A DNA stretch of 63,775 nt, counting the filler, from Sluysia triapertura (lineage: Eukaryota): the NCBI GenBank assembly GCA_046118255.1. It is 4 parts of 4 records of this genome, joined end to end, with 100 filler letters (N's around TTAATTAATTAA, not from the genome) between each part and the next. Parts side by side here need not be neighbours in the genome. Positions count along the whole stretch, not along the records: positions 1 to 26,615 come from JBJNIA010133065.1; positions 26,716 to 37,835 come from JBJNIA010188598.1; 2 more parts are not named here. One strand, 5' to 3'. The notes under the pieces were generated by a model. The model was not told the origin of the DNA. It did no database searches and was given only the letters and a program-made list of their open reading frames with translations. The translations under genes and the position numbers were made by a program. Below, piece by piece: positions 5,226-38,985 of the stretch; position 1 is the first letter of the stretch; each line of letters starts with the position of its first letter.

Positions 5226-5326
5226 TATACGTAATTTAAGGAAACTTTTGTTTATATCTTACTGTATATGTAACAATAGGTTAATCTAAACAATTAAATA
5301 TTACGTTTAAATTATAGATTTTACAT

Positions 5327-5663: not shown

Positions 5664-6939
5664 GTACAAAAAATGTTAAAATAATTTAAGTATATTTTGG
5701 TATTCCTGATATACAGTGAATACATAGACTTACCAAGGAAAAAATTACTCAGATTGCATGGATCTTAAAATTTGCTGCTAATTTTTTGGATATATTATAT
5801 TGTCGTTGCTATCGTGGTTAACGTTATTGTGAATTCTACAAAATTCTAAAGAGTTTATATAGTATATTACGCCATTTTAATTTACCTAATATTAAATATT
5901 TGCCTAAAAATAAATATTAAAATATCTAAAAATAAATATTAAAATTATTCAAAAACAATTACCCAAATTAATTATTTGAACAAAATATTTTCTTTTGATA
6001 TTTAATAATGACTTTAATTTATTTTAAATACTAATTTCTTTTTAATTTTCTTATTTTAAAATTTTTGTTAATTATATTTATTTATTAATTTTCTTATTTT
6101 TTAAAATTTTTGATTATATTTATTTAATAATATTTGTATAATAACAATAATATTTACAAGATATAAAACAAACAAAATGGAACAATCTTTACAATCCAGC
6201 TTTACAACCTAACAACCGCAAATAACAATTATGATTATAACAATAACGACAACAAGTGTGATTATTATTGTCTCCATTAATGTCATGAATATAATGAAAA
6301 TAATATTTCCAATATATTATACCTTAATACCCATAATAAAGTCGATAACAATGACGATATATGTTAACCTTTAGTGGACGAATGTTAAATCATTCTTACT
6401 CCTTGAAACTTTTATCCTGCTGTCAAGTTATGTGGAACCCAAACACCGTATTTTAGTATCTTCCTAAATAGTTTCATATGATTTAAAACGGTTTTATTGC
6501 GGTTTCCTAATATCAATAATAATTTTAATGCAATTCCTAATATTCTAAATTTACAATAAACATTCTATTGATATTTAATGTAGATATTTAAAAGCGATTA
6601 AGTGTTTAATAAATATTAAAATTCAAAATAGTTTAAAATTTGTTTTATAATTTTATAATGGAGAAGAAAATTTTAGTAAAGTTTAAAACATCATTGTATT
6701 TTTAATTTTGAAGTGGGCTTGTAAGGACATTTAATAAATACAAGAGTTATTAAATGAAGGTATATTATTGTGATTGAAATTCAATTAGTGAAGACTTCAT
6801 TTAAATTGCTTAGAGAAAATTTTATGGACTTAAAGATCTTATTAAAGTAAATATTAAATTGAAGTGTTTTCTTAAAAAATATTGATTACTTATTATAAGC
6901 TTAAAATATATTCGAGTCTTTAGAAATTCCTTAGAATTC

Positions 6940-8260
6940 TTTAATACCTAATACCTTAACAATTTTATTAAAAATTTATATTACACATTTTCAGAAATTC
7001 ATTAAAAACATTTTTGTTACATAAGTCTTCGTCAATATAACATTCACCCCCAAAATCTACAACTCACATTTCTAAATTCACAACTAATACAAAAATAATC
7101 AAAATCATATCCGTTTCAACACCACACAACAATTTTGTTAAAGTCTTCATAACCATTTTTATATCTTGTTTCTTTTTACATCCACAGAAATCAACTTCCA
7201 TTTTTCAAAACATTTCAAAATCTACAATTTACACTCTAAAATCAACATAAAACATATTAAACTAAATCAACACATTGTACATAAAACAATACTCTCTAAC
7301 ATTTTAACATTATCATATTTATCTCCTGTACATCCACTAAAACAATTCATCCCCTAAAGTCAATTTAAATCCATACCACTAATAGCTCAAAGACAAGATT
7401 ACCTAAAAACATCAAGAAAATAAATCACATTTTCAACATTGTACAATCACCTTTTGAACACACTAAAAAATAGACTATAATTTATCTTCTTTACATTCGC
7501 TAAACACTCTTCTAAATGTATCTTTAGATCACATTCTTCTAATATTTAAACATTATCTTCACTCAAAAGCATCATTTTAAACGTACAGCATTAGAACTAC
7601 AATCGCATCTTGAAATATCAACTATATGTTTAAAACCAATTCAAACTCATTTTCATTTAAAGATCTGTAGTTAAATAAATTTAACTATGTTAAGAAACAT
7701 TAAAGTGTAAAAAGAAAGATCTTGTTTCAAGTAATATCAAGAATTTATGTATTTTAGGATAGTAATAATAATAATAACATTCTTGTTGTTATCATGATTA
7801 TTATTATCACCATTTTAATTTTTATAATTATCATTGTATTTCTTGTTATTTTCAAGTTTTTAATAAGTCGAAACGTTTAAGATTCAAAAGAAAGTTTATG
7901 TGATTTTTAATTCGAAAAAGTTTATGCGATTTTAATAATAATAACACTGTGTTATTATTATTATCATCTTTATTATTATTATTATTATTATTTCATTTTT
8001 GGACATAAATAAATAATTAACTGAATATCTGCCATCATCAGCAGTGACATTTTGATTTACATTTATAATTTAACGTCATTGTTGATGATGGTTGTCATCA
8101 CAGTGTATTTGGTCATACGTCACTTTTAATTTGTGTTTTTATCATTTCAATACTTCTGGTGGACGACCAATCAAGAATTACTCAGTAATCACATAAATTT
8201 TTGTCACAATTTAAAAAATAATTTTTTATTTTCGTTTAGATAGCGGAACGGGATAAATAC
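6940..8260 (+). repeat. Cassette family copy B
   Basis: C/A-rich block 6950-7650, TATGTTAAGAA...AAAAGAAAGATC...TTTATGT (7686-7750), AAT tracts, a 20-bp-arm hairpin 8032-8051/8072-8091 (17/20 complementary), and CCAATC at 8167. Confidence 0.75.
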
Positions 8261-9779
8261 ATGGCACATCATTCGGGACAGCAATTTTAATTTATATATG
8301 TGTAATAAATAAAATTTTATGTAATTTTTATTTATTAATTCTCGTGTTAAAGTTAAGAAATAAATTTCAATTATATGTAGTAATTTTTAATCTACCATGG
8401 ATAAGATATAAATCCTCACAACATTCGAAATATTCACAACAGAGATATTTTTACAAATAATTAATGTATCATGTCTTATATTTTGTTTATACATTCAAAA
8501 AGAAATTATTCTGTGAAGGGTTTGAGATATAAAATATTGATATTAGTGGCACAAAATCATTAATGTGATAGTGCTTTTGTAATATAATAACTGGAATGAA
8601 TCAATAAAGTGTAACTTATGTATGATGATAAAAATTAGGTACAATATAGAGAATTAAATTAATAAATTATAAACTTAATTAATAAATTTAAGTTAAATAA
8701 TTTAAATGAAAACAACTCTACAAATAGTTACATGTCCAAAGTATGAACACAACAAAAATTTAGAATAACACCAATATTAATTATGGCATAAATGTAGGAC
8801 CATACAAATATTTACACCATGTAAAGAAAACCAATATCACAAGTAAACAATTTACACAAAAGTATACGACATAATTGGTCAAAACATCATTAATAATACC
8901 GAGTCTAAGATCAACGCAAAATTAGAATTCAACAGTGTTTTGACACTACATCATCAGTCGAACTTACTCAACAACACCTATCATGACAATAATGTTTATT
9001 TATTAAAAATTCTGAACGAATGCGTCGATTTTCTACAATTAATGGAAGACATTAATAACTTAAAGAATGCAACTGCCAATGTCACTCGGAAATTAAAAAT
9101 AATTAACTTTCCTGATATTTCTAAAGTAATCACCATTGTTAATTTTCATTCTTATTCTTTTCTTCTTTTTAGTATCGTAAGAAACTGGAATTCGTAAAGT
9201 TAAACCAAATGACTAGGTTATATGTCCTATTAGATATTCAAAAAATACTGAAATAGTAAATACTCATAAGGAAAGTGCATTTGGTGAATTTTATATAGCA
9301 AATAGGATTCATTTTCTGCAATATATAAGGATCCAAAAAAATTAAAAATTCCCCAAATGTATCTTTTCAATACATAATGAACCTATCATTTCATTTAAAT
9401 ATATATCGCATGAATAACAAAAGCTTTTTGATTAATGTATGTTTTTTGTTTTGAATACAGAACAATCAAATTATATGAATAAATAGATACAAGTTTAGAG
9501 ACATAATAAAATTTATATTTTCATTTTCTTTTCTGTGTTACCATAGTTTGTTACCAAGAATTAAAATATTTAAGTATAAACCAATAAAAATTTAACTGTA
9601 ATACTTTATTATAATTTGTTTGGCCTTTAAATAATTATAATATTTTATATTTTATTGTTATGCGATTGAAAAGGTGACTTGATATCTTACTTTTGATTCT
9701 ATTCTATATTTTATATTTGTATATAAAGAAATTTATTCGTTAACATCGATCAGTCGGTTGATTTCTTGATGTAAACTCA

Positions 9780-10036
9780 CTAAGAAGGTCATGTCAACAC
9801 ATCTTACAAATAGTCCATTTAAGTGATCTGAATGCATGTAAATACTCCTCCTGATTTATTTCTTTGGGGTGCGTACGTCAAAAATCCGAGAATGAAAGAT
9901 CAACTCGTGGCAATGATAATCAATTATTGCACACAAATTAATGAAGACTTGTGACGAAGTGTTTGCTATTCTGTCGTTAGGAGTGTAAAATTCATTTAAG
10001 AAGGCGGCCAACATTTTGAGCATATACTCCGTTAGA
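9780..10036 (+). mobile_element. Tc1/mariner-superfamily transposase C-terminal remnant
   Basis: The degenerate translation TPPDLFLWG...AYVKNP...QINEDL*RSVC...EGGQHFEHILR* matches the typical SPDLTPxDFFLWG...GGHFEHLL ending. Confidence 0.75.
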
Positions 10037-11409
10037 TTATGTACATAATTTTAATATGTAATAATAGATTGGACTTTTATAATTTGTGTCGAAAAGGAAC
10101 ATATCACAAATGATGACGTAATCATTGCAGATTCCCGTACTAATCTTGTTAATCTCGAAATAATTATTTTAAATTTCAATATTTGTTTTTTATTCTATTT
10201 AATTTTTAATGTGAATTCGTTTCATGCATTCATTCGATTAGATCATTTGAATTAGAACCGGATAATTCATTGTAACAATATTAGCATGTCAACTAATTGA
10301 TTTTTACGATAATCGTCGTTTTAAATTCAACTTTATTCTTATTTAATGACTTGAATAAAAAATAAGAAGTAGAAAAGAATTTATGACATTATTGACACAA
10401 CAATTAGCAACAATCAATATAATAAATAGTTGGTGTATGACATTCATGAGGGATGGTCGAAAAACTTAATAAAACCATAAACGTACTTAGAAATATTCAT
10501 AATTATAAACGATTTTGATGTTCCTCGGTTTTATTTGCTGCATTTATACATAAAATTTCTTAAAGGATTGGGCAGTTAAATCTTGTTATATAATATCAGA
10601 CGTAATATTTTGTATAATTTTTAACATGACTAAAAATCCAACAGTTGTTATTCATAATAATTATAATAATATAAATATTAATAAATATAACATAAATATT
10701 AAATATTATCTAATTGATCTAAATTGGATAAATATGGAACCAATGAGCCACAGCTAAACTTCAAATCTGGTGGAGTAACATACGTAAGGCATTCATAACC
10801 TTATCATGAAATATATTACTCATTCTTACATCTAAATAAAACTGAATGATCTTAATACTTTAGCCCACATAGAGTTTTTGGGACAACTGAAATCTCAACC
10901 TATTCTAATTCTAATTAGATAAAGCAATAACTTACCAAAACTACAATAGAAGTTACACTATTCATGTATTTGATTAAATCTTATAACATTTAATATTTAT
11001 TTTATTTCATTATATTATTATTTATTATTCCATTTATTTTATAATATTATTTCTAAATTGATTTTATAAAAATATTTATTTTTATTATATTAAAGAAATA
11101 ATAATATTAATAATTTAATAATAATTTAATAAATTTAATAATTAAGATTAAATTGAAACTAAACATTTAAAAATTAAAAACTACTTGAAATTAAATTAAA
11201 ATTAAATATTTAAAATTTTCAAATCATTTAAATTGTTTAAATAAACTATTTTTGTAAATAGCAATATGGCTGCTGAAAATTCTACATAAAAATCAGTGGG
11301 TTTAACGGAATTTTCACAAGTGTTCAAAATCCATGTATTAATATTAAGTTTCGCCTTCTCACCGTAACTGGGAGAAGTAAAATCCACTTAAAATATTAAT
11401 TTACTTCGT

Positions 11410-11750
11410 ACTTATACCGTAAAAAGGATAAGTCAACATTTAATTAAAATTTCTATACTAAATCTAATAATTTAGATTTAAGTATTAACATATATATCGT
11501 TTTTATAACTGTTTTGTCTATAAAGATTTGTTTCTTGTATATAAAGAATTGTCTTTGATAATACACCTTATAGGTAGTTTCTTGAATTGTACATTAAAAA
11601 AAACTAAAATCAACTTTCAACGCTAGACCATAATAAGTCTAGCTTAAAATCGTATAATACTACATAAAGTTTTCCTAAATTAGACCGTAAAAGGCTAATT
11701 TAAAATATTATTCTTTAAAGTTAGACCGTAAAAAGGCTAACTCAAAATCA
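11410..11750. repeat. Array of four small hairpin units (TTAGACCGTAAAAGGCTAA-like)
   Basis: TTATACCGTAAAAAGGATAA (about 11412), GCTAGACCATAATAAGTCTAGC (11622), AATTAGACCGTAAAAGGCTAATT (11678) and AGTTAGACCGTAAAAAGGCTAACT (11719). Confidence 0.8.
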
Positions 11751-11899
11751 TCTAAAGTATAATTAATAGTTTTTTTATTATTTAAATACCGTCATTCTCC
11801 TGACTAAACATTTTTGTAAGTGACTCTTCTAAAATCAGATTTTATTGCTTCTTAAAAACCTAATAGACCGCCGTCGACCAGACAAGCCATTTCTGTTAG

Positions 11900-13100
11900 G
11901 TGGACTTGTAGTGGTCAATCCTAATAACCACTAAAAATTTATTAAAATTCCGCAACATCCAAATCACAATCGTATTTAACACTATCAATTTACATTAACT
12001 AATTCACAAAAAAGCATAACTCGACATTCACAATAATCCAACAACAAATTCATTCGAAATAATCCATCTAATACTTCCAAACCCTTCATTTTACGCTACA
12101 TTTTGGCAATTAATATCTAACAATCGATAACATTCATTTAATAGTTTATTCGCTTAAATCAAATCACAATCATAAACTTACAACATATAAATCACAATTA
12201 CATTTAATACCATTCCACAACACTAGTAAACCTATTTGAAAAGTATAAGATACCTAATTCATACCTTGAATCAATTACATTTCAAACTTACTATTCATCT
12301 ACACATAATCGTCATCAACATTGTGCAACAGCATTGCATTTTTTTTCTTTTAAATTCAATAAATCACAATCCATTATATTTCAATACATAAAACTTGTTT
12401 TCATACATAAAAACTTCAATTAACATTGAAGAACGTATTCTAACACACTCTAATTCACTGCAAGACTCATATCAATTATTAAACCTTCAAAGGTCAAACA
12501 TATCTATCAATTCTTTTAAAACAATTATCACTCAGCAATTTAGTCTCAAATACATTTTAATCTATTTCAACACGATAAAACTTTTCAAAAATTCAAAGTA
12601 AATCTAATACAGCTTTAAAGAATTCACTGTTATGAAACGAAGCAATAACGATAACTAGATCACAGTACGTCCTGTTATCGTTGCTCTTTCATATAATATC
12701 AGCAATTTTTATTTCATTTTATTTACATATGTCAGAATAAGAAAAGAATTTGTTAATGTTTAAAGAATTTCATGCGAATTTCATTATTCTTGTTAATAAT
12801 AATAATAACATTATTATTGTTATTATTAATATCACATATCAGAAAATAATTTCATTAAAATTTTTATGTCAAAATTTGGTCGCTACCATCACCATTGTTA
12901 ACACTATGTATCACAGTTCCCATTAATGTGTCAGTCATCAGTACTAATAATTTTTGCATGCTACCCAATCAGAGCTGATATTGTTCAATGTTCTGTCTTG
13001 AGGCTCTGATTGAATGACCAACCAAAATCGAAATTGCCGGATCTAAAAATAAAATGATAATAAAAAATTAAGCAACGAATTAAAAAGGAAAAAAAATACA
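11900..13100 (+). repeat. Cassette family copy C
   Basis: C/A-rich block 11930-12620, hairpin 12634-12655/12674-12690, TATGTCAGAATAAGAAAAGAA...TTTCATGCG, AAT tract, CCATCACCATTG at about 12886, and a perfect CAATCAGAGC (12966-12975)/GCTCTGATTG (13003-13012) inverted pair. Confidence 0.8.
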
Positions 13101-13205
13101 AATTAAAAATTTAGTGCGGATATCAAAAATTTATCATTAGATTTTAAGTAATAAGCTCTTGATATTGTTTTTTTTCAATTTCAAATACCACATTCAAGTT
13201 CTAGA

Positions 13206-14191
13206 ATGACATTACCATTATATATACAACTTAAGCAGAGTGGAAGTTCAAATATTAACCTTTCTACGTATTATTGGTAGATTATGCTTCGAAAGACTAT
13301 CATCTAAATTTGTATCAAATGCATCAGTCAGTAAATCAAGTAGTGAAGAATTCAATATACTAGGTTTTAAACCTATGATTTCGACTAATAGTGATGGTTC
13401 CAATTTCGTTGCCATATGCTCCGAACTTAAATAATTTCTCATCATCAACAAGACATACTAAAAGATGTCAAAGTGTATATAAAAATAATTTAGACCTAAA
13501 TGAAATGATGCAAGATTTATTAAAAGATTTATGTTATGATTTGAATGTCACAACACTTGGTTTTATAATTCTTCAAAATGTGAGACTACTACTAAAAGCA
13601 TATAGCTGTTCATTAATTTTGATAGAAGAAGATCTGGTAACTCTTCAACCGATGCTTGTTAGTAAATTGCTTGATTTAACCAGAGATGATGTTTCGAACG
13701 AAGTTGTAAAGCATTGTCATGACAATATTATTCGAATTCCATTTAGTCACGTGGCACAAACAGTGGAATATGAAAGTGTTGAAGATGTATATAGAGTTAA
13801 ACGATCAAATGTAGAAATAGATAAATCGACTAGTAATGTTGCAAAGTGTGATTTGTGCATGATTCTAAAAGACAATACTGTTATCGTAAGCAAAATAACA
13901 CAAACAGTTAATAAAGTCAATCAATATCAGTATTCATATAGTCAAAGAGATGTCAAAGATTTTCAAAGTTGTCTAAGCTTTAGTGTGATGATTATAAAAA
14001 AGGCACAAGTTCATCGTCAATTTCAGTTACATACTCGGCAAAATCAAAACAGAACAATAAACAAACAAAACGGAATTACCGATTTAGTCACAGTCGAAGA
14101 TGGAGATGGAGATGAAGATATTCACTTCAAGAAAATATCCTTAGTAAAATTTTATTTTTTATTTTTAATTCCTTGCCATTATTTAATTTAG
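13206..14191 (+). pseudogene. Truncated, frameshifted cGMP phosphodiesterase (PDE5/6/11 type) N-terminus plus GAF-A domain, fused to unrelated sequence
   Basis: SVSKSSSEEFNILGFKPMISTNSDG, then DLLKDLCYDLNV...ILQNVRLLLKAYSCSL...LVSKLLD...HVAQT...NVEIDKST...DLCMILKD...QTVNK...KAQVHRQFQLHTRQNQ, follow the PDE GAF-A consensus. Similarity stops after RQNQ (about 14047); there is no GAF-B or catalytic domain. Confidence 0.85.
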
Positions 14192-14815
14192 ATAATCTCC
14201 AGAGAAGGTTTCATTACAAGACGCAAAACAAACTCGACACGTCCTAAAATTATAATCAATGAAGGATCAAAATTTAAATGTTTAATATTTAAACTAAATT
14301 TTAATTCAACAAAATTTTCTTTTACATGATTTGTAGTTGTTCGTTTAACTGTTTATACAAAAATAGAAGTAGATTTAAAGTAAATGTTTCTAAATTAATA
14401 ATAGCAACTATAGATTGTAAAGAATTAGATAAACTATATATGAGCAATGATTTTATTGACTGTCATCCTATTAGTACGCCCTACTATTATACTTTATTAC
14501 GTTCTAAATGTGTATTAAATAAATCGATAAATGCTACTGTAACTCAATTGCTTTATCATAAAGTAACATTCGTAAGGTTCAATACGTTCAAGAAATTCAT
14601 AAGGTTTGATCTTAGTATACTTCCAAACGGGTGTCAATCTATCAGCACCACAAATTATGCAAATAAATATTTACCACAAACATATTCTAACCAATCAAAT
14701 TGGTACCAAGAACTTAATCTACTAAACAGGTCGCCTGAGACAAAAACGAATGCCCCAAATTTAAGAAGAGTGTTTATCATTTAGTTGAAAGAAACTGATT
14801 TGTTTGGAGGGACTT

Positions 14816-17400
14816 GGTCTTTTTGTTGGTCTACCAATACGGTAGCTGGTTTTAGTTTGCACGAATTAATTGTCTTTTCCTGTCCGTTGATGTCAATGAG
14901 GGCGGTATGACTATCAAGATTTGGTGTGGTCCGGCGTATCTTGGCTGTAATGACGTGGGATTCTCGATTGATACCTACACGAATTGACTCTCGATGATGT
15001 TTCTAGGAATGTGGATGTACGAAATATTGTTTTGGCGGGGGTTTTGTCCAGTTCGTTGAAGTATTCGCGTAATAAAGGTGAATATAATTTCTCTGTTCGA
15101 TTGTTGGACTCAAATAGTTCGAAATGTATTTGTGTTTGTTCCTAGAACTATTTGACCTGGCGAATATCTAGTTGAAGTATGTGGTATATTGCGCCAACCT
15201 AAAAGCATCAACCCAGTTATGATGTATGGATAGTGCACACAAGGAATTTTTGAGAGTGCGGTGAAACCTCTCGATCACGCCATTTGGTTGTGGGTGGTAT
15301 GTTGTAGTTCGATGTCTAGTACTGTCCAATTGTTTAATTAAGTCGTTGAATAATCTAGACTCGAATTGTGCTCCTTGGTCTGTGATTATTCTTCTCGGGA
15401 CTCCGAAGCGGGAAATCCAGTTTGAAACTAGAATTCTTGATAGTCTCTGAAGTTATGGTCCTGATGGGAAACACTTCCGGCTAGCGACTATGTTAAGAGA
15501 TATGTGTAGCTTCGAGATTGTGGTAATAGACCGACAATGTCCATGTGGATGGTTTCAAATAAGTGGCCAGTTGGGAAATGAAGTGGTCCCGGTTTGATAT
15601 GTTTGATATGGCATGTCAAACAGTCTTTGCACCAGAGTTTGATATCTTTGTGCATTGAAGACCAGATCACTTTGGAGCGTAAAACTTCGTACGTGGCTTT
15701 AGTTCCACAATGAGTGATTCTGAAAAGCTTTGAATCTTAGCTGTTGGCCTAAAACTGGGCTAGAGATGCCTGATAACTGGTAGTCAAAATAAATTCCCTC
15801 ACGCAATACAGGTGTGATACTGAACTGGGAAATATCTTGACTTGTAGGTGGATTTTGTTGTAAATCCTCAACAAAAAACATAGGTAGGAAGTCTATGCTA
15901 TTGATTCCTACACTGGATAGGGCGTCGGCGACCACATTTTCTTGTCCCAGAAAGTATTCAATATTGAAATTGAAGTGGGATAGATAACTGATGTGCCGCT
16001 GTTGCCTGGGTGTTGGATTCTTCATGTCGAAGATGTGAAAGAGAGGTAAATATTCAAAGTGCTTTACTGCTAAGTAGATAGCCAGAAGTTCACGATCGAA
16101 AAAGGAATATCGTGTTTGTGTGGCAGACAATTTGCATGAGAAGAATTCTACAGGTTTTGGAATTCCTTGTTGCATCTGCGCAAGTACTGCGCCTATTGCA
16201 ATGTTAGAGGCGTCTGTAGTGAGAATAAAAGTGGCAGAGGGAAAGACAAACTTTTCATATCCATAATTGCTTCTTTGGTGCGGTGGAAGGAGGGCAATTT
16301 TGATCCCATTGGTTTGGCTGCGATTTATTGCCCGAGGAAAGAGCTGTTATTGGTGGTATTATATATGATAGCCTCGGTATGAATCTTCGACAATAGTTTA
16401 CGAGACATAAAAAAAACTCCGCATTTGTGTAACCGCTTGTGGTTGCGGAAAGTTTCGTATCGCTGATGTACGGCTTTCTAGAGGATCAATGCCGTCAGCG
16501 GAGATATGGTGGCCTAGAAATGTAATTCTCGACTTGAAGAAGTGACATTTCGCTGGCATAATAATTAAACTATTGTCGGCCAATTTCTTTAGCACGGTAT
16601 TCAATTGAATTTGATGTTGTTGGATATCTTAGGATGATAATATGATATCGTCAATATACGCCGTTGAGAATGGCAATCCTTGAAGGGCTTGGTCAATATG
16701 ACGTTGAAAAGTTTGTGCAGCGTTGCGTAGACCGAAATTCATTCTGATATATTCAAAGAGACCAAAAGGGGTAGTCACAGACGTTTTGGGTATATCAGAA
16801 TCATGCACTGGTATTTGGTGGTAAGCCTTGGCTAGGTCACTTGAAGAAAAGACGCTGCATCCGAAAAACCTATGTAGTATATCCGTTAAAAGAGGCATCG
16901 GATATGCGTCGGGTATAGTTACCTTATTCAACATTTTATAGTTGCCGCATATTCGAATATTGCCATCTTTTTTCTTAACGATTTGCAGAGGTGAGGCCCA
17001 AGGTGATGAAGATCGCCGCACTATTCCATATCAAGGAATTCTAGCTCTGTTTGTGCATGGATTTTTTTGAGATAGTTCTCTTCTGCGTTGTCTGCAGGGT
17101 GAAGTTGAAAGGGTATTGATATAATGCTCTGATCTAGGTGTATAGTTTGAATTGAATTGTTGAATAAGCAATTCGGGTTAAACCTGCTCCACATAAGGAA
17201 TTACATTTGTTTCATTAAGATGTAATTCGATTCTTATGTGGGAAACTTGTCCAGAGCTTTTACATAATGTGTTTGTTCTGCAGTCCACGAGCTGAAGAAA
17301 TCTGCTCCTAAAATTGGCTGTTGAAGAGCGGCTATTAAAAAATTCCACTGGAATACTCTAGCGAACTGGGGTATTTTGAATTGGAGTTTTAGGGTCTTAT
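14816..17400 (-). mobile_element. Degenerate Ty3/Gypsy LTR-retrotransposon pol (protease tail, RT, RNase H, integrase); no gag or LTR seen
   Basis: ILGADFF; SSSPWASP...KKKDG...DLAKAYHQIP...TPFGLFEYIRMNFGLRNAAQTFQR...YIDDI; TDAS...DRELLAIYLAVKHF...ENVVADALS; HMDIVG...ITDQGAQFE...YHPQPNGVIERFHRTL. Order RT-RH-IN, with multiple frameshifts and stops. Confidence 0.95.
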
Positions 17401-18879
17401 TTATTATACTATTGGGAATAACTTATTTTAGTGTGAGGTTTGGAGTTTGGAGAGCATGATTTATAGTTTATGTTAATGTGAGAAAATAACAGCGAAGTGA
17501 ACGGGTTAAATATGGGATTTTATAAATTTTGAGGGTAACGAAAGTATTAAGATTGGAGTGGCACCACAAGTCCCTTTCCAACTAATATAATTAAAATAAG
17601 TAAAATAAAGAATATGTATTAATTAAATTAACTATTTAACAGAAAGTGTTGGGATTGGTGAAGGATGAGGGTGGATATAAGGATCAAGACTAAGGATAAC
17701 AGAATAAATTCAACATTATTAAAGAATTAAGATGAAGCATTACTATAGGGAGATCAAACAAAATTCATCACACTTCATCATATAAAAACATTTCACATGT
17801 ACACAGATTACTAAACAAATTACTAAACTCATTCAAAAAACAAACATAACCATCGCACATAATTATCATGAACTACAGCTACTATTATTATAATTCAAAT
17901 CGTACTAAACAATATATATAATAATTATTGTCATTATTGTTATATAATATGATTATTAAATAATAACTTTTATATATTTAAATATTTATATATATTCGTG
18001 TATATGTGTACATATATTTATTTACTTTTTAATTTACGATCAGTGTTAAGAACTACCGATTCTATTCAATCATATATTAATCCAATTGGTGTACTAAATC
18101 TGGTCAATCTATGTAGTATAAGTCTTGCCGCCACCATTGACGATGAAGATTGACCTATAAAACACAACTCATTGAAATACTTCGATAACAATTTTATTTC
18201 ATCGTATTTACTACTTAATTACTTAATTTCGAAACAACTGTCAGAACTTTCTCCGAACCCGTCAAACACTTTTACCACAAACAGTACTCCATTAAATCGT
18301 ATTATAATATCGCCATATTTCGGTATTGCCGGAACTTGTTCTTTGTCCATACAATTAAGAAAAGTGAAAATAAAGAAAATGGCTTCCTTTATAACACAAT
18401 TTACTACAAATGAAATATGTACAAACTATTATATCAGTACTTTATCTGCTCTCCTTTGTTATCTCATAATTTCTTGTCGAAATTGTGTAATAAAATAATA
18501 AAAAATTATCATTATCGATTAAAAAATTTTGTAATTATTAAAAAATCAATGCTAAATGATACTTTTATGATTTTGTTTATTATTTATTTATTAGTGATAA
18601 TAAATATAAAAATGTTTGTATTATGTAAAAAAACAATTGTGCTTAAGTGGATAGTTGACCCAAATCGTAAGGAAAATACAACATGGAAAACAAAATTTAT
18701 AATACTAATATATTATATAGTTGGTGAACTTTTTATTATTAGACCCAGTAGAGCACTGGAATGCTTTAATATTTTTAAATCAATGTAGAATTCAACGTAT
18801 TGTGATAATTTCACTAATTCTAAGCATTTAAATGTAAAAAATTTTTATTTATACATCCGTTACATTAGATGATATACAT

Positions 18880-19190
18880 TTTAATGATAGTGGAGATTAT
18901 AATTGGACATTTCATGTACAAAATAAACCAATAATTATTCAACATTATTTATTGGTAATGGTGAATGTAAAGCCAATAATTTATTCATTATCGTTCTAAC
19001 CAAATATTTTTACAGGAAATGTAGCGTTAGTATTAAAAGAAATTGAGCACTTGTTAACAAAAGAGTTTCCATTTAAGTTTGAAACTTCACAATCTAAACG
19101 ACAAAATTTTACTTTGTCAGCAAAGTTACCAACCAATATTGAAGCTACGCGAACTGTTGGTCAAAATGTTATGTATGGATCACATGGACC
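18880..19190 (+). pseudogene. Possible ribophorin I (RPN1) fragment fused to the CDS pseudogene
   Basis: EIEHLLTKEFPFKFETSQSKRQ...AKLPTNIEATRTVGQNVMYG resembles RPN1 [21 protein letters not shown]...VKLASRNVESYTK...LLDYGP with an internal deletion. Recognised by eye only. Confidence 0.4.
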
Positions 19191-19930
19191 GATAGTTTCA
19201 ATTATAATAGTAATGTTAATTCAAATAAAGGTTTTCTACGAAGTCATCAAAATCTGTTTTAATATTTACCGTTACCAAGGCTTGAAATTGTTTCGTTCTT
19301 TATCTTGTTTTTTTGTTCACATCAAATTATTTCTTGTTCGGAGAAAATCTCATTAGTCATTTTCGAATTTTATTGACTAAAGAAGATTTACTGCCTTTTT
19401 GTTTAATTGGTTTCGTGATCTTAGTCTTGATATTCACTAAAAAAACAATATTTTAAGCAATTTGTATTGTTTGGATGGACTCATTTGTTGCTATTGATAA
19501 TTGTTACGAGCAGTCACTTAATAAACAATATTTTCCTGGGCATTATTTGGTTTATACTACCGATTTTCTTAATATTTTTCAATGATATCATGGGTTACAT
19601 TTTTGGAAATGTCTCTGGTCGGACTCCACTAATAAAGTTATCTCAAAAAAGACAGAAATATGTTTCATTGATACTGCTACATCAACAGTGATATTTTCCA
19701 TCATTTTGCCGCTGACTTTTATTCGTTCCACTTATTTTGTGTGTCCCTTGGAATACAACGATATCCAGGGTACTCTCTTTATGGAATGTGTGCGAAATTC
19801 TGTGTTTAGAGAGCATACATTAAAATTACCAAGCATTTTGAAAAGAGTATTGCCCAATACTCATATCCTCTATTATTCGTTTTTGAAGCAAAGTATTGTA
19901 CTGTCAATATTCTTATCACTAGTGGCTCGA
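19180..19930 (+). pseudogene. Phosphatidate cytidylyltransferase (CDP-diacylglycerol synthase, CDS1/2 family) internal fragment, frameshifted
   Basis: GPIVSIIIVMLIQIKVFYEVIKI...FRSLS; [31 protein letters not shown]...NDIMGYIFG...GRTPLIKLS; YFVCPLEYND...SIVLSIFLSL. Spread over separate ORFs and ending before the GPFGGFFASGFKR motif. Confidence 0.9.
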
Positions 19931-20399
19931 TGCTCTAGATCCTTTAATTATAGTGATATGAGTACTGTTATATATTTTTTGTTATATTTTATTGTTTAAA
20001 TAAAGTATCAAATTTTATCATTGTATTAAACTCTTTACTTTTTAAAGGCATTAGGCCTAATTCATTGATAAAAAATTTTGCATTTCACTAATTGTTGTTA
20101 AATTAAAGTTCGATGGTTTTTTAACTAAATTGTTAAATTTCTATAATACCTATTCGAAAATAAATTAAATTAAACATAATTTATTAAAATCAAATAGTAC
20201 TAATTATAATTTATTAGAATTAAATCTCACAACGCCCTTCACATTCATTATCACCAAAATACTAACATAACCAAAATCATATCTTTTTAACATCACATAA
20301 TTACTTTTTAGAATTTATTATTATTTATTATTAATTTAAACAAAAGTTATTTTTAAGTTTGTTATTTTAGCCACGTATACTCCGATTATTGAAGCTCAC

Positions 20400-21620
20400 G
20401 TTTCATTATCTAAAATAAAATGAAAAATTAAGTTATCATTTATATCATGATAAAAAATATTTACTGTATGATTAACCATAGATCTAACATTGCCGAATAT
20501 TTCTGAAGCTGATATTCCTATGCATTCGAGTAAATTTGTAATTCTAGACAAATGATCTGTGTTAGATATATTTTCGGATTATGATTCGATAATTGGTTAA
20601 CTGCGTGTATATATACACACTTAACTCCAAATTTTGTGCATCTACCATTTATATCACTACTGTATGGGCGCACTGCTGTTCTAATATATTGATTTGATCT
20701 TAATGAATTATTGAAATAGTTGTGAGACAGTGAACTGATGGAAGATACATTAAATTCTTGGGTATATAGCAAAAATCACGACATTTATAAGGAACAGCAT
20801 AATGATATACAGAAAATATTTTCAAATTTTCTTTATATTTATCTTTATACTCAATGCTTAACTGGGATGCATTTATTCGTAAAACTTTATTTGAAATTAA
20901 ATTTAGGCTTGCATTCATTGATCTTATTATAAACGTTTTGATGATATTTGCGTTTAGTAGATTATCTTCTTTAACTCGTATGTCAACCATAAGCATTCTT
21001 TTACCTGTGACGGAATAATCATTAACTATATCAACAATTATTGGTGCGAAATTTACACTTTGATTCAGATCAATGACATCAACATGACTAATTATATCTG
21101 CTCTTATTCGAAAACTCAGACTTCTTTGAATCATCTCAAATTTGTCTTTATTATTTTCAAGTAATTCGGTACGAATTATCATCACAAATTCATAGAAAGC
21201 ATAATCTTTTAAATTTTTATTTGATCTTTTCATTTTTAAAAACGAATAGCATTGAGAAAATATACAAGTTTAGTTGCAAATGCTTAATCTCGTTTTGTTG
21301 TCGAAACTAGTGATGAGAGTTCTTAAATTAATTACATTCACGTTTAATTACATTTAATATATTTTCATGGTAATCTATATGAGTAATGATCTGCTCTAGA
21401 TATTGATTAGTAAATTGTCTTGAAACACCAATATCGACTCTAGGATAGAAGACATATAAATAGATATAATAAATAGGGATTTCATCAATTTTTTTCGAAT
21501 TGCTGATGCATATGCGTTTCTGTCGTACCTCATGAAATGTTATTACTCGTATTTGAAATAAAAATATCTTTCTATTATTAACACGTATTAACACAGATCA
21601 ATTATTAACCATATCATCAA
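20400..21620 (-). pseudogene. Disrupted coding-like cargo downstream of cassette D, weakly cadherin-like
   Basis: Consecutive minus-strand ORFs (21328-21594, 20700-21233, 20518-20772). HVDVIDLNQSVNFAP...IRVKED is reminiscent of a cadherin linker, but the similarity is weak. Confidence 0.3.
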
Positions 21621-21699
21621 TATTTACATTTGGTTCCGTAACAATAACATATTTATTAAGACCACTAAATATATTACATAACAATTTATATTTAATATA

Positions 21700-22738
21700 T
21701 GTATAAGTATTTTGATACATAATAATAATAATAGGTTCTGTTGTCATAATAACATATAAAAAGCAAAGTTTTTTTATTCTTTAAACACCAATGTTATTCT
21801 CAAAATTAGCTATGCCGATTTAGCAACTTATAATTGCAATTGTGATAATTATAGTATCACTATCTTTTAGCACGAATCAAATTGTAACAACATAAGAGCA
21901 AAAGGGAGATTGTCTTGATTGGTTGTTCAACCAGAGTGATAAAAATAATGATAAGAAACTCTATGGTTGGACACCAATAATAGCATTAAAAACAAAACAT
22001 GATTGACAGGCAAGCCACTATCAATTGTGACAGGAATTTATACATAGAAACCAATAGTGTCACCATTGATAGAGGTAATTACTGGTTATATGATAAAACA
22101 AAAATAAAAAATAATGAAAAATAAAGATGATAAAAATAACAATAACAACAATTTTTTCATTGTTATAAATGCATAAAGTCTTTAGATTACTTTCTTTTAA
22201 TTCGTTATTATTTCTTGACATATTTATATCTATTTAAAGTAGTTTAATGTTATGATGTCACCAATCAAAGTTACGTGTTTGGAATGAATTTTACGGTTTA
22301 GTTGCGATTCTAGTGTCATATGATAATGAGTAAAACGTTTTTGAATGAATTTTTAAATATTAATTAATGTTTTTGACTGAAGATGAGCTTGAGTGTTGAA
22401 AGCTTATGATTTAAGTATTTGAAATAATATAAATGCTTTACGTGGATTTTAAATGTTTATTAATGTTTCGAATGAAAGTATTGTTCGGATGTTAAAATAT
22501 GTTGAAAGAGAGTAATTTCGTGGATGTGAATAAGATACATTATAGGCTATGTTTTGGTAAATTCTAAAAAGTAATGATATTTGATTTTTGATATGATTTT
22601 TGGTATGTTAGTATTAAATATGTATGAAATGTTTATGATTAATTTTTTTGAATGTGAACTGTAGACTTTAAGAGTGAATGTGATTTTGTTGTATTAAAAG
22701 GAAAGATTTTAATAAAATTTGTTAAAAGTAATAGATTG
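21700..22738 (-). repeat. Cassette family copy D
   Basis: On the minus strand, TATTACTTTTAACAAATTTTATTAAAAT and CATTCACTCTTAAAGTCTACAGTTCACATT...AAAATCATATC match copy B 6951-7110. Also AATATGTCAAGAA...TTTATGC (22171-22224), a hairpin 22015-22032/22058-22075 (16/18), an inverted pair CAACCAGAGT/ACTCTATGGTTG (21928-21969) and CCAATCAAG at about 21914-21922. Confidence 0.8.
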
Positions 22739-22739
22739 G

Positions 22740-23830
22740 TCACCACACAGAAGGAATTAATCCATCCTGATGCTTGTCTCGAACATATTCACATTCTCCA
22801 GACTCTTTTACATGCCAGCACAACTCACTGTCCAAAACCTCCACTCTTTGTCTAATGGTTTAATATCTCTAATGCTTTTGGTTCCGTGCCACACGATTAT
22901 CTGTTTGACTCCTTGAGATATCTGGTTTCCAAAAACCAACACTCCTGCTACTACAGGAACTGTACAAAGACAACTCCTGCACATACTCCCTTGGCCGTCA
23001 TACTTCGACTTCTGTTCCTGCAAAAGTTGGTGCTAAACAAGGATGTTCTTTGTCAATGAAACTCTTTTGTCGTGCCATCGAACAACTGCTTCGCTTTGTT
23101 ATCCGTAGTGTTTCTGCCTTCACTTACTTTAGCTCCTCGTTTACTCGACTTGTTTACGCTGATGATATCATGGTTGTATCCAACTACCACCAATCTCTTC
23201 AACAGACTTTAAATGATCTTGCCGTACTATATTCATACATCAACCTAAAATTTCGCCCTGATAAATGTTGGCTTTCTTAACCCTGACAATTCTGAAGCGC
23301 ACCTTACTAATTATAATTCCTCTCTTCATATCATTAATTCAGAGGTAAAATACACTTATCTTAAATCAAAAATTGGAAGTGCAAAACACTTAGCAATTGA
23401 ATCTTTACTGCATACTGCTCTCTCTGATTGATTTAGATTATTAGAATCCGAACTTCATCATGTTCAAAAAATCCGAGCTATGAAAATCTTTATTTTGTCT
23501 CGCTTCCTTTATCGATTTAGAGCTTGTAAAATGCTACGAACGCCGCTTGGGAATGCACGAATGCACTACAAGGATAGGATGATGATAAGGACTCACCCTC
23601 TTTTGATAAAAGCTTTAGAAATATCCTGATGTCAGCTCTTCAAATCCACTTTCAGTCAATATCTACTTCCTTTAGACTACTATCGATCCTGGAGGACTTG
23701 GCTATACTTCTCTTCACAACGAATACTTAATTCAAACTATAGTTCACTGTTTCCGTATCTTTACCTCTACCGAAAATACTCTTCGATCTTTTCCATAGAA
23801 TTCCTTAAAGAGGACCCTAAACTCTACTAT
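22740..23830 (+). mobile_element. Degenerate non-LTR retrotransposon reverse-transcriptase fragment (R2/NeSL/Utopia-like)
   Basis: WFNISNAFGSVPH (about 22856), GAKQGCSLSMKLF, LVYADDI, NLKFRPDKC, YTYL and PGGLG motifs in the expected order, with stops and frameshifts. Confidence 0.88.
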
Positions 23831-24736
23831 AAATCCAGACTTATTCAGATATTCATAAGGAAAACTCTCTTTATTCTCCGAACATCTTAGCAAAATCGTC
23901 AGGCGTAAGGTCAAAATCTTCACCTTAATTTTTCCGGTTATTGGCACAATGAAACCTGATAATATTAGTATTCTTAGGACTTTTGAGTTCGGTAAATCGG
24001 CAATAAACAAATTGCTGGGACTCAGTGAAGCGTGGCCTCCACAGGTAACACTAGTGTTGATAAAAATAAAACAATTATATTAATATTTACTGTTCTTTGC
24101 AAATTCATCTTTTTATTTTAATTGTTATGTATTACTTTTGGTTTAAACATATTATACTGAAATTATTGTATTTTATTTTTAAATAAGTTTAAATATATCC
24201 TTAATTTAATGCGGTATAATTTTTAAAAATGTGTACTACTTTAAATATAAATTTAGATTTAGTAATTTAATTTTTAAGTACCTATTATTTTACATTTGTT
24301 TTTGATTATCACGTGAGAAATTGGTTTTTTTAATAGAAACTCAGCAAATCAAGATCCATTAATTAATTTCTATTCATTAGAATAAGATTTAATTGATTCA
24401 ACGGTGTTATTCTGATTAAGTTATTAAAAACTGACTTCAATTCGATATGTATGTTCACTGGTTTAAAAAATCTACACTTAAGCAAAATATTGTGAAAGCA
24501 CAAAATCTGTAACCACTTATTTCGTTACACCAGACTGCTTAGAAGAGTTTAATCCTTTTCTTGAAATGTTTTTACAAATTATTTTATAGGTGTATTAATA
24601 GTAATAATATTGTAAAATATGCATGTGGTATTTAATCTTCAAAGTGAAAGCCAGGAACTTAAAGCAAATACCATTATTTAATTGTATTCTTAAATTTAAA
24701 CGGAAAGCAATGTATACTTTTTATGCTTAATTTATC

Positions 24737-24777
24737 AGCCAATGAAAATCAAGCAACCTGAGTATAATATATATAAC
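24737..24777 (+). promoter_or_regulatory. Putative CCAAT and TATA core promoter of the Snail gene
   Basis: AGCCAATGA at 24737 and TATATATAA at about 24768-24776, about 45 nt upstream of the ATG. Motif-only evidence in AT-rich DNA. Confidence 0.4.
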
Positions 24778-24820
24778 TGCGCTTCAATGATATCGCATTC
24801 TAATTTTAATTACTATCATA

Positions 24821-25549
24821 ATGCCTCTTTTAGATTCTAATATATATACAAATAATTCGTATCCATGGTTACCAATTTCTGCAAATCCAATTGTTGCAAA
24901 ATTCAGTATCATACGTCAACTTGTGGGGGCTCTCAATGCTCAGTTTCCTAACTATAATCCAAATCCGATAGAAAAATTTGAAATTATTAAAACTGCTACA
25001 AATATTTTCATGAAAATGTCACAATTTCACAATATACTTTCGTCTATCGATCTTTTAAAAATATATAGCTCTTCTTTAGTGTCGTATTCATCACAAATGT
25101 CTTCATCTATATCATCATCACCACTGTCGTCATCAACATCATCTTTGTCTTTATCAATTACAACATCTCCAATCAAGAATTCTACTGATTTTTGTACACC
25201 AATGCCAGTTTTATCAACCAAATATGCATGTGCATTGTGTTCAAAAACACATAATTCTGCCAGTGCACTTAAAATGCATCAGCGTACTCACAATCCACCT
25301 TGTGTTTGTCCACAATGTGGCAAAGCGTTCAGTAGAATGTGGTTATTATCCGGTCATCTGCGTACACATACTGGAGAACGACCGTACGTGTGCATTAGAT
25401 GTCAGCGAGCATTTGCAGATAGATCTAATTTGCGAGCACATATGCAAACGCATACGAGTAAGAAAAGATATCAGTGTTCCAAATGTCCTAGAAGTTTCAG
25501 TAGACAATCTTTATTAAGGAAACACACTATTCAGTGTACTACCAGTTAA
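24821..25549 (+). CDS. snail: Snail-family C2H2 zinc-finger transcription factor (4 fingers, single exon)
   Basis: Intact 242-aa [76 protein letters not shown]...C is the Snail signature. Confidence 0.95.
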
Positions 25550-26615
25550 ATGGAGCCTTGTCAAAAGTCTTTGTGTACTTATAATTATTATTTAGAATTA
25601 TAATATTAAATATTCTTGTTATTCATGCAGATAAATTTATATTTTGTATAATTTTTTCAGCTAAAACGAGCATCTTTAATAACATAAATGAAAGTACTAC
25701 AGAATTATCCATATTAACAAAAGTAGTAATTTAATTAATTATTTCTTTATAAGTAATTGATATTCAGAACATTTTGCTAACTTACTAAATTTTTATACGA
25801 ATGAAAATATTAAATTATTTTAAATGCAAGTTAATAAGAAAATGGATCTTATATTTATTTTTTAAAATTATTCATAGTAATCAATATAAAAATATTTAAA
25901 AATTAAAGTGAGAAATTATTTGAAAGGAAATCAATAAAAAAATAATATCAATGCATGAAATACAACATATTGTATAAGTAAAACTTTGTTCAAAGTATAT
26001 ATGGATTTAAGTGCATTGCGTATAACTCGATCAATACATTCGGAAAAAATCGAGTCTAAAATTTATAATCCCAAAAATTCTTCTAACTCATCAGAATATT
26101 TGTTATTCTAAAAAAATGAAATTTACATTTTAATATGGTCTTATACTATTACTTTATTACTGATGCGAAAGAATTAATGGAATTAAACAACATTATTAAC
26201 ATTGATTAACAATGACTAATTATCGATAAAAATTAGTTTCTGATTCGTTAACTTTCATAAGTAAATAAATTTGTTATTACGTTTCGAATGTCTACCCAAA
26301 ACCTCAATCGAAAAAGAGAAAAAGAATAAGAAAGGCCTGGGTTAGCGTTGCCATTCATACGGTTTTACATAGAATGCAAAAAAGAAGATTCATTGACGTT
26401 AAATAAATAAAGACGTCATTATCATAATACGGCTTTCGCAATGTTGTTAAATTATCTTATCTGAATTGAGCAGCAAAATGAAAATTCGGGCCAATATAAA
26501 TTTCTAATGTTAAGGCGGATGACCGATATTTTCTGATGTTACGCATAGTTATTTTTACAGACACTTTTGACGCAGTGCGAAAGTGAACACAACACCTAAA
26601 CTGTCACTCTGCTTT

Positions 26616-26715
26616 NNNNNNNNNNNNNNNNNNNNNNNNNNNNNNNNNNNNNNNNNNNNTTAATTAATTAANNNNNNNNNNNNNNNNNNNNNNNNNNNNN
26701 NNNNNNNNNNNNNNN
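26616..26715. other. Assembly spacer (N44-TTAATTAATTAA-N44)
   Basis: The same artificial spacer occurs three times in the window. Confidence 0.98.
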
Positions 26716-27540
26716 CATTAAAGATTAAAATAACTTCAACCTTTTAACAAGCATTTTAAACTCAAATCTAATGCATAAATCTTGTTTTCAAACTATAAAC
26801 CTTTTAACAAGCTTCAACAAATTATCCTAACATTATTCATTCATTTACAACTTTAATCATTACACGTTTCAAAACAAATTTCAAATAACTTTAAAGATTG
26901 TATTGTTTTACTGTGAAGAATCAACCACAAACGATACATCTTACCCTTAATTGTTGTTGCTCCTTCACAGTACATTTGTCTTTATCATTCTTATTTCATT
27001 TTTATATGTAAGAAGAGAAAAAGATACAAAAGAACAGATCATGTGTTTCACAGATTGAAGATTTATGCGTTGATTTCTTTTAAAAGTTTTGTAGTAATAA
27101 TAATAACAATAATTCCATCGTTTTTACTACTACTAATATTATTGTTATTATTATTATTAAATTTATTAGCATTTAAATCCAGGCATATAAATATAAAATT
27201 AAAAATTAAATTAAAAATATAAATTACAATAAGTCGATTAGACTGCTTGATGCCATCACCAATGCTGACAGCCTATGTCACATTAACATTGAGCTGTCAG
27301 CCTTGATGATGGTCGGCCATCAGTCACATTCATCACGCCAATCAGAGCACAACTAACCAAATTACAAAAGACAAATACCAACGCTCTGATTGAGCAAACA
27401 AAAATAGGGCAGGTAAAGCTGAAAATAGTAATAACAATTAAAATTTTTATTAACAATTAAGTTTCAATACGATTACAATTTTATACCTCTAAGTGTCCTC
27501 AAAATATTCATTTTTTGTTGTTTCAAATTTTCTACATTTT
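26716..27540 (+). repeat. Cassette family copy E (best conserved; 5' part cut by the gap)
   Basis: C/A block, hairpin 26909-26930/26951-26972 (19/22), TATGTAAGAAGAGAAAAGATAC...TTTATGCG, AAT tract, hairpin 27253-27272/27293-27312 (18/20), and CAATCAGAGC (27339-27348)/GCTCTGATTG (27383-27392). Confidence 0.85.
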
Positions 27541-31483: not shown

Positions 31484-32133
31484 TTTAACATTGGATATTT
31501 AATATAATAAGAATTTTATAAGGAATCTACATAAAAGGAAGATAAAATACAGACATTTGTATTTTCAAATTATTCTACAACGACACAAGGAAGGTTCAAC
31601 ATAAACATTCGTAATTTCAAATTATTAACCGTTTTTGGCTAACTGAATTAACAAGATATTAACCTTATCGTGATCAGTAATTATTCAATATTTTAGTCAA
31701 GTAAACGATTTTGTACTTTTATTTAGGATCAAAATATTATCTAAAATAATAATAAAATAAATCATTTGTTAACTTTGTTTCTCTTTTAAATTCCTAAAAA
31801 ATCAACTGTGAGTAGTGCTACCAAAAAGAAAGTTTTTTGAGTAAATTGTTCATTAGCGTTTTCATTCCCGAACATCGGAACGAGTATTAGAATTCATCTC
31901 GATACTGATAAAACTTTGAGTAATTAAAAGATATAGAATAGCGACAAGTAATACGTAGGAACATTGATAAATACTAGTAGGCGTTGAATACTCATAAGAG
32001 TATAAGAAAAAGAATAAATTCCTATAAAAAATAGAAACCTGTCAACTAAAATTTATAAAGAATTTGTAAAGTGAATTCAGTATTCAGAATAGGTTTTCGT
32101 GAGTTACGATTTTAATAAAAATTATAAATCTAA

Positions 32134-32134
<1 letters not shown>

Positions 32135-32189
<55 letters not shown>

Positions 32190-32207
32190 GTATTAGTATT
32201 AGTATTA
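32135..32207. repeat. (ATT)n microsatellite with a (TAGTAT)n tail
   Basis: Seen directly. Confidence 0.97.
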
Positions 32208-38520: not shown

Positions 38521-38985
38521 GAACAAAAATCATCAGACTGACGAATAAAAAATTAAAAAATTATTAGATGACCAATAAAAAAGTTAATCAATAATTATTT
38601 TGGCAGCCATTAGAGAGAAAGAAAAAAAATTTGTTGGTGTAAAAAATTAATCACAATCATTACCTACAAAAATAAGCATTTGGCATCCATATTGGCAATA
38701 AAAAATAAAAGTTAATCAGACGGCAGAATTTTAAAAAAAAGTATTAGCCAGACATTACTAAAAAATTAATTTGGACAGTTCTTCCCAGAATTTAATAATA
38801 ATCATAAGTAACGGCAATATTGTAAAGAGTTAAATTAATCAAAAAAACGTTTTAAAAAATTAAGCATCAGACAATATCAAAGAAAAATAACAAGACAGTA
38901 AACTAAAAAAAGGAAAAGATATTATCTTGTTAAAATAATCAACAATAACAGCTAATAATATACTTGTCCACCTCAATTCGACGTC

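Follow-up and report, generated by a model that had tools for sequence, protein, structure and literature searches.

Hairpins in a diverged dispersed repeat of Sluysia triapertura, with different open reading frames behind most of its copies

The 63,775-nt stretch of the Sluysia triapertura genome analysed here (the window; assembly GCA_046118255.1, parts of four records joined end to end) contains imperfect hairpins that a reading of the sequence alone had singled out as keeping their pairing while their letters change. We find that these hairpins are one position, HP2 (hairpin 2), in a diverged dispersed repeat of 1-1.3 kb, which we call the cassette. Homologous copies of the cassette share a fixed order of parts, their stems covary, and behind most of them lies a different long reading frame on the same strand, several of these frames being host-derived with key residues lost. 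From this we infer transcription, a role for the fold, RNA-based capture of host sequence and selection for an open frame, and we favour, with somewhat less than even confidence, the account of an old non-autonomous, gene-capturing retroelement family in a triclad-like flatworm, with the cassette as its 5' module (a promoter and a folded leader, possibly a long terminal repeat, LTR). The feature is real and larger than the hairpin alone, on a base of one window and three intact HP2 copies that were chosen because they are hairpins.

The cassette and its copies

The cassette runs from a C/A-rich arm of ~0.8 kb (GC skew -0.4 to -0.8, with no conserved reading frame on either strand) through HP1, a short motif block and an AAT/ATT tract to HP2 and then to HP3, which holds CCAAT boxes (Table 1). 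By sequence comparison, B, C, D and E are clear copies, G is a probable one, and A and H are weak ones. Leave-one-out nhmmer profiles recover B (E-value 7.8e-9), C, D (3.4e-6, through its C-rich arm) and E and miss A, and a profile of the core alone recovers B (1.7e-8), C and E and misses D. Reversed-window controls reach at most 10.8 bits, as against 15-44 for the left-out copies B, C and E, the scores of the copies including large composition-bias terms. Among 626 windows, reciprocal best matches join B with D (score 100) and C with E (117) against 99th percentiles of 66-80, the percentile for copy D itself being 66-69. The motif block of B has its best match in E among 840 windows, as does that of G (66 against a 99th percentile of 48), the part of G after the tract giving no significant match. 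The same-strand neighbours B and C are different subtypes. The divergence of the copies keeps BLAST from joining their hairpin regions, which sensitive alignment does link; repeat annotation would therefore miss the family.

The sequence-only reading had built its case on B, D and E, and this set stands, though it had overlooked copy C, which is broken, and the captured-gene frames that follow the cassettes. It was right to take D as a homologous hairpin copy but missed its orientation: the cassette of D lies on the minus strand, with a B-D local score of 268 that way round against 55 the other way, and a loop identity of 16/24 against 12/22.

Some further features touch the cassette arms. At 33260-33290 and near 6900, where C-rich arms begin, the sign of the GC skew changes. 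Another C-rich stretch, F, starts at 33277 with TGTAAC, which is like the start of an LTR, and stands back to back with weak copy H; it gives no significant alignment with the cassette copies. The assembly gaps (26616-26715, 37836-37935 and 51088-51187) are filled with N and a stop-codon linker, and two of the three meet the C-rich arm of copy E or G, as expected if that arm is repetitive.

The hairpins and the upkeep of their pairing

Hairpins were scanned for with 18-nt arms, loops of at most 60 nt and a score of at least 20, against a null of 12 local triplet shuffles of the window. Six strong hairpins were found, as against 0-1 per shuffle (2 in total), and all six have loops of 22-25 nt, a class to which the mirror-repeat control contributes 0/6. 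Five of them lie inside cassette copies; the sixth belongs to a small element, itself bounded by inverted ends, at 54.1-54.3 kb. RNA folding z-scores for HP2 are -5.3 (B, plus strand), -3.3 (D, plus), -4.7 (E, plus) and -5.1 (E, minus), and the DNA folding energy is about -11 kcal/mol for HP2 of B and of D. The six arm positions claimed earlier (8032/8072 in B, 22015/22058 in D, 27253/27293 in E) are correct, as are the accompanying pair counts (17/20, 16/18 and 18/20) and loop lengths. The hairpin of G was assigned to HP2 by position and eye alone, its alignment being not significant.

Arms are indeed more alike within a copy than between copies, at 47/54 (87%) against 77/108 (71%; binomial p 0.005, Fisher p 0.019). 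Among the 18 pair columns of HP2 in B, D and E, 9 are invariant, including a TGAC/GTCA core, and 5 have changed on both sides; as many double changes were reached in 4/500 shuffles and slid controls gave 0-1, a shuffle count that by the covariation tool's own warning is not a probability and that stands on the thin base of three sequences picked as hairpins. The RNAalifold covariation term for HP2 is about zero (+0.11). When neutral decay from a perfect ancestral stem was simulated, P was 0.002-0.02 for the pairing of HP2 and did not exceed 6e-4 for five columns showing two pair types, and neutral decay of HP2 is rejected. HP1, which the earlier reading had left unused, shows the same pattern in C and E, with 40/43 within against 32/43 between (the pair count for C excludes bulges) and with arms identical at 16/21 and 16/22 positions. 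The double changes in HP2 fall in two clusters, pairs 4-5 and pairs 11-13, with a GC/CG swap among them, and the arms are not better conserved than the loops (B-D arms 12/18, loop 16/24).

The claim that pairing is kept while letters change holds for B, D and E and fails for C, in which the best partner for the HP2 5' arm within the next 80 nt pairs at 9/18 only. Since C is without its HP2 3' arm, pairing is not kept in every copy, and C, unpaired at HP2, together with A, which has no HP2, speaks against strict constraint on each one. Homology between the copies, together with pairing that survives sequence change, calls for either selection on the fold or arm-to-arm copying; to that extent the earlier proposal of fold selection or conversion within the hairpin is upheld. 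The data require that pairing was maintained in the lineages that gave rise to the copies, be it by selection on RNA, by selection on single-stranded DNA or by arm-to-arm copying.

Reading frames behind the cassettes

The window holds ten frames of at least 150 codons, of which six follow C, D, E or G and one more (at 33911) follows stretch F. A long frame on the same strand starts at most 800 nt behind 4/6 copies, as against 6.1% of random positions (p 1.9e-4), the 800-nt distance having been picked after the data were seen. The regions downstream are unrelated in 28 pairings, with a mild exception in C-D (119 against 85+-8). The expectation of such frames as chance runs is 1e-3 to 1e-21, and they therefore cannot be chance runs. 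They are glycine-poor (0-2.4%) and ~30% identical to their relatives, and the PDE5-like and ADPRM-like frames are continuous across 185-190 matched residues. On their sequences, these frames look like genes in which the protein function has eroded but the frame has been kept open.

The long frame behind G is chimeric. Its residues 10-190 are an ADPRM-like metallophosphoesterase that is truncated, with GNHE replaced by DNQE and the last metal motif missing; 24-residue repeats and then sequence without an assigned relative follow, and residues 300-632 had no match in the atlas search. The TIS11-like frame behind D matches Pfam zf-CCCH_UNK at an E-value of 1.4e-4, under the cut-off of that profile. 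For the 366-codon frame of E the single-sequence fold is unusable (predicted local distance difference test score, pLDDT, 31.5) and the atlas gave no usable match. Protein databases, searched among candidates of similar length only, held no relative of that frame (1244 candidates) or of the GAF frame behind C (239), and viral collections held no relatives of the frames of E or G. The broken frame downstream of B, when read through, had its best match at an E-value of 2.2.

We rejected a history in which the hairpins were perfect at insertion and then decayed by ~5%. It is in tension with the open frames, whose chances of staying open would be 0.20, 0.12, 0.31, 0.03 and 0.42, estimates made on frames that had been selected for openness; 5% substitution would close the frame of G with 97% probability.

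The frame behind stretch F (33911-34396) is a hydrophobic one of 161 codons with short repeats and no Pfam match. At 29120-29135, ~60 nt past the second frame of E, a purine run followed by TGTTG resembles a polypurine tract and LTR start, and the sequence beyond is unlike the cassette.

Proposed mechanism and alternative explanations

If the cassette is a 5' module of the kind proposed, its CCAAT region would drive a transcript, and the hairpins would fold in the RNA of that transcript or in its single-stranded DNA copy, where they could serve as a cis signal read by the proteins of a partner element for packaging or reverse transcription. In active lineages the pairing would be under selection with the letters left free, arm-to-arm copying through template switching could produce the clustered double changes, and template switching could likewise join host mRNAs behind the module. 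The frame would be kept open since the transcript must be translatable, not since the protein is needed, and copies would decay once inserted, of which the lost arm of C and the broken frame of B may be instances. Such a gene-capturing retroelement is the simplest account, and its action would be comparable to LTR-mediated capture (PMC5131818). In the Gypsy relic nearby, the 5' non-coding part (17401-17700) has the same C-over-G skew on its sense strand.

Several results weigh against this proposal, in addition to the choice of the frame distance described above. Self-BLAST and 24492 window pairings gave no paired terminal repeats and no cassette-like sequence behind any frame, no target-site duplication was found at the nine hairpins tested, and the ends of the element are undefined. 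A CA+TGG junction is present behind B, D and G and absent behind C, E and A; it lies at unlike distances and has a background of ~1 per kb, and therefore carries no weight as an LTR end or primer site. Among 30 frames and 21 read-through frames scanned against Pfam, no gag, pol or other mobilising frame was found behind the copies. Copies B and A are without a long frame behind them, and the frames of E have no detectable source in the searches run. The 10 mismatches in four stems (2 G.T, 3 A.C and 5 other) lack a G.T bias, so that neither strand is favoured, and the strand that folds better is not the same in B as in E. We have not filed the cassette as an LTR element, because a second repeat, a convincing primer site and defined ends were not found.

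The fold may have no job at all, the cassette being a promoter of repeat origin that fast-evolving host paralogues or retrocopies have reused and its stems staying paired only through local template switching. We regard this as unlikely, though it sits well with the absence of G.U bias on either strand, with arms that are no better kept than loops and with the clustering of the double changes. According to PMC8794818, template switching can yield several compensatory changes in one step; the same paper reports events enriched at 4-nt loops, with evidence for stem maintenance that its authors call circumstantial. Also against this reading, stems of ~20 and loops of 20-25 nt are kept across different hairpins, a constancy that copying by itself would not require. 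For the reused promoter, PMC10558129 describes Schmidtea tissue-specific promoters as enriched in A/T trinucleotide repeats, with CCAAT boxes in the intestinal and epidermal ones. We see little likelihood in a repeat-borne microRNA cluster, in which a primary transcript would hold two to four precursors with seeds diversifying between copies. The precursors of animal microRNAs are hairpins of ~60 nt with at least 16 pairs and a loop of 8-40 nt, a geometry that these hairpins share (~60 nt, stems of 18-22 bp, loops of 20-25 nt, extra basal pairing in B, D and E), and copy E has three of them in a row, ~170 nt apart. However, no Rfam microRNA family matches at gathering score, the only such match being plant MIR172 with 24 of 70 bits (E-value 0.9), no arm is conserved in the manner of a seed, and the arms vary. 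One of the hairpins is a plain AAT/ATT repeat, the preferred strand is inconsistent and C has lost an arm. The three arm motifs do not occur in the literature searched.

Helitron terminator hairpins are much shorter than those of the cassette, which counts against taking the cassette as the end of a rolling-circle (Helitron- or Helentron-like) or other single-stranded-DNA element, the hairpins of which would fold in the displaced strand while read-through captured host DNA. The strand-neutral pairing and strong skew do suit a DNA intermediate, and Helitrons capture gene fragments by bypassing the terminator hairpin, according to PMC6431247. But CTRR lies at most 30 nt downstream in 1/9 hairpins, at 26 nt (on the other strand in 4/9 at 6-23 nt, about the chance level), no Rep or helicase, which non-autonomous copies would in any case not carry, was found in the frames searched, and the frames, beginning with ATG soon after the cassette and remaining open, point to a promoter rather than a terminator; we give this explanation slender odds. 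The sequence-only reading had likened the hairpins to a cruciform origin, a nick site or a site bound by a dimeric protein; that they are such a site in duplex DNA we now consider highly improbable. The nine pairs that never vary, with their TGAC/GTCA core, and the lack of strand bias would agree with it. Yet the loops of 24-25 nt, the 2-3 mismatches and the weak DNA folding of B and D are poorly suited to extrusion from duplex DNA, half of the 18 pairs vary, so that a dimer-binding site is not supported because a protein site would conserve letters, and no Rep, helicase, transposase or initiator frame was found beside the copies. That unrelated low-complexity hairpins of an AT-rich genome simply look alike is barely credible. 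The arms do have a CAT/CAC/CAA triplet rhythm, with a triplet null giving one pair at 12/18 or better in 9% of trials, and the profile scores carry their composition-bias terms; but all three pairs reach at least 12/18 in 0.4% of triplet trials and in 0/200000 letter trials, the flanks are homologous and collinear, and the reversed-window controls fall short of the left-out copies. Finally, HP2 alone was rejected as a miniature inverted-repeat transposable element (MITE): 0/9 hairpins have an abutting direct repeat, and the flanks are homologous between copies.

Comparison with known systems

LARD and TRIM elements are non-autonomous LTR elements of plants, with paired LTRs and a non-coding terminal module whose structure is said to be conserved, and they are not known to hold captured open frames. 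The proposed module resembles them in being non-autonomous with a non-coding terminal module, and differs in that paired termini were not found here. Animal LTR-mediated retrocopies, which PMC5131818 describes as chimeric, sense-oriented and often in frame, are likewise host-gene pieces in sense behind a repeat-derived promoter. Those retrocopies are young and have LTR-element sequence on both flanks (PMC5131818), unlike the 5' module alone seen here, where covarying 60-nt hairpins are the conserved feature and the frames have diverged to ~30% identity with their relatives. Burro (GYPSM1), as described in PMC6431247, comprises giant planarian Gypsy elements with host-like domains and upstream accessory open reading frames, with decayed fragments reported from one Dugesia species; the kind of host and the presence of host-like domains are shared. 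Pfam scans behind the cassettes found no gag-pol polyprotein, MATH, BIR, ankyrin, BCL2 or env, which sets the cassette apart from Burro as described, with its giant ORF1 of gag, pol, env-like and apoptosis/ubiquitin domains. A metallophosphatase-like domain, which the original planarian genome paper may list for these elements, had no occurrence in the papers searched.

With Helitrons and Pack-MULEs the cassette shares the capture of unrelated host-gene fragments and, with Helitrons, a hairpin signal (PMC6431247); unlike them, it has no CTRR at the usual place, and its long frames are open and not enclosed by long terminal inverted repeats. As for hairpin maintenance by template switching, the several adjacent compensatory changes per stem are alike, whereas the cases in PMC8794818 are rRNA stems with short loops, unlike the 20-25 nt loops of a dispersed repeat.

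Searches elsewhere and implications

A metagenome pattern scan for HP2 gave 17 loci, with the second arm paired in 0/17 (7-12 of 18) and no profile match below an E-value of 0.24, and a viral scan for HP3 gave one locus, inside a phage coding frame and with no profile match; both sets were rejected as chance, and these collections are not where flatworm repeats are expected, which limits the negative. The literature searched gave no description of such a cassette, its coverage being partial with repeat databases outside it, so that novelty is unproven.

The family may be abundant, given 4-7 copies per ~40 kb in this one window. A bolder version of our proposal, which we think doubtful, is a family of mobile promoter-hairpin cassettes that join unrelated host mRNAs as cargo and in which only the folding of the leader and the openness of the frame are selected, like defective interfering viral RNAs, with hairpin shape as the recognition code. 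If true, this would make the cassettes a lasting supply of pseudo-enzyme orphan genes, and possibly of the AAT-repeat and CCAAT promoters reported in planarians. Our main proposal, if it holds, would identify a route by which planarian genomes form new, fast-eroding genes and would account for one group of orphan open frames. It would also offer a natural set of many paralogous hairpins in which to separate fold selection from arm-to-arm copying, a matter not yet settled in RNA evolution. Should the cassette turn out to belong, as its LTR, to a giant Gypsy family already known, its value would fall to that of a useful annotation.

Table 1. Positions in the window of the cassette copies, their hairpins and the frames behind them
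Feature	Position	Strand	Description
Copy B	6900..8260	+	ends approximate; C-rich arm, motif block, AAT/ATT tract, HP2, degenerate HP3
Copy C	11900..13060	+	ends approximate; leave-one-out E-value 5.7e-6, core-only E-value 9.3e-5
Copy D	21830..22740	-	far end abuts LINE-type relic
Copy E	26717..27450	+	left end cut by assembly gap; leave-one-out E-value 2.2e-13, core-only E-value 2.9e-13
Probable copy G	37937..38600	+	left end cut by assembly gap
Weak copy A	850..1700	-	without HP2; z 5.6 with D; missed by leave-one-out and by best-match alignment
Weak copy H	32100..33260	-	C-rich arm and motif block only; best match G, 76 against 99th percentile 54
HP1 of copy C	12630..12696	+	21/21 aligned pairs, bulges on 5' side
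HP1 of copy E	26909..26972	+	19/22 pairs, 20-nt loop
AAT/ATT tract hairpin of copy E	27092..27159	+	22-bp stem, 24-nt loop
HP2 of copy B	8032..8091	+	20-bp stem, 20-nt loop; 17/20 Watson-Crick pairs and 2 G.T
HP2 5' arm of copy C	12886..12903	+	15/18 identical to arm of E; 3' arm missing, probably deleted
HP2 of copy D	22015..22075	- (cassette on minus strand)	18-bp stem, 25-nt loop; 16/18 pairs
HP2 of copy E	27253..27312	+	20-bp stem, 20-nt loop; 18/20 pairs
Hairpin at HP2 position of probable copy G	38263..38345	+	far diverged; z -3.3
HP3 of copy C	12965..13013	+	CCAAT box and complement in arms
HP3 of copy D	21922..21975	-	both arms changed relative to C and E, read by eye
HP3 of copy E	27338..27392	+	CCAAT-containing arms as in C
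Frame behind C	13391..14191	+	266 codons; eroded PDE5-like GAF-A, no catalytic domain; E-value 5.1e-17 to PDB 3lfv_A
Second frame behind C	14326..14784	+	152 codons; no match better than E-value 0.42
Frame behind D	20700..21233	-	177 codons; histone deacetylase likeness weak (E-value 0.028), too weak to name
Overlapping frame behind D	20521..20775	-	eroded tristetraprolin/TIS11-like CCCH finger, first cysteine lost; E-value 0.0017 to PDB 1m9o_A
Frame behind E	27543..28643	+	366 codons; no relative found
Second frame behind E	28586..29059	+	157 codons; overlaps 366-codon frame; no relative detected
Frame behind G	38986..40884	+	632-codon chimera

Other elements in the window

The window has 26% G+C. 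Between copies D and E lies an intact single-exon snail-1-like gene of the Snail zinc-finger type (24821-25549), whose best full-length relative (55% over 90%) clusters with Schmidtea mediterranea snail-1. This gene marks the DNA as animal and makes a triclad flatworm or close kin the probable host. A broken Gypsy-type element on the minus strand (14800-18140) retains reverse transcriptase, RNase H and integrase pieces and a C-rich leader, with a CA-A-TGG junction near 18136 that by eye is like a primer site; it is related to a Gypsy-type element near 47800-48420. The relic that abuts copy D is a broken reverse transcriptase of the long interspersed nuclear element (LINE) type on the plus strand (22740-24050), and a short minus-strand frame at 6300-6540 with a WVPH motif resembles a mariner transposase relic. 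At 19330-19690 (plus strand) a fragment of a CDP-diacylglycerol synthase gene (Pfam E-value 2.5e-11), with stops nearby, faces the frames behind D and would be either an exon or another captured piece.

Smaller repeats include a family that resembles tRNA-derived short interspersed nuclear elements, having a tRNA head with an altered anticodon arm (77-86% alike; 41290-41448, 47219-47378, 59611-59770 and 50001-50062, minus strand). The sixth strong hairpin sits in a MITE-like small element (54144-54342) that is bounded by perfect 26-bp inverted ends and holds internal 15-bp repeats. An 87-nt repeat occurs in two copies (5144-5229 and 52426-52512) that are 82% alike and have no Rfam match, and one of them carries CTGATGAG, which resembles a hammerhead core. 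An exon-like piece of an Ndr-family gene lies at 55160-55402 (Pfam E-value 2e-5).

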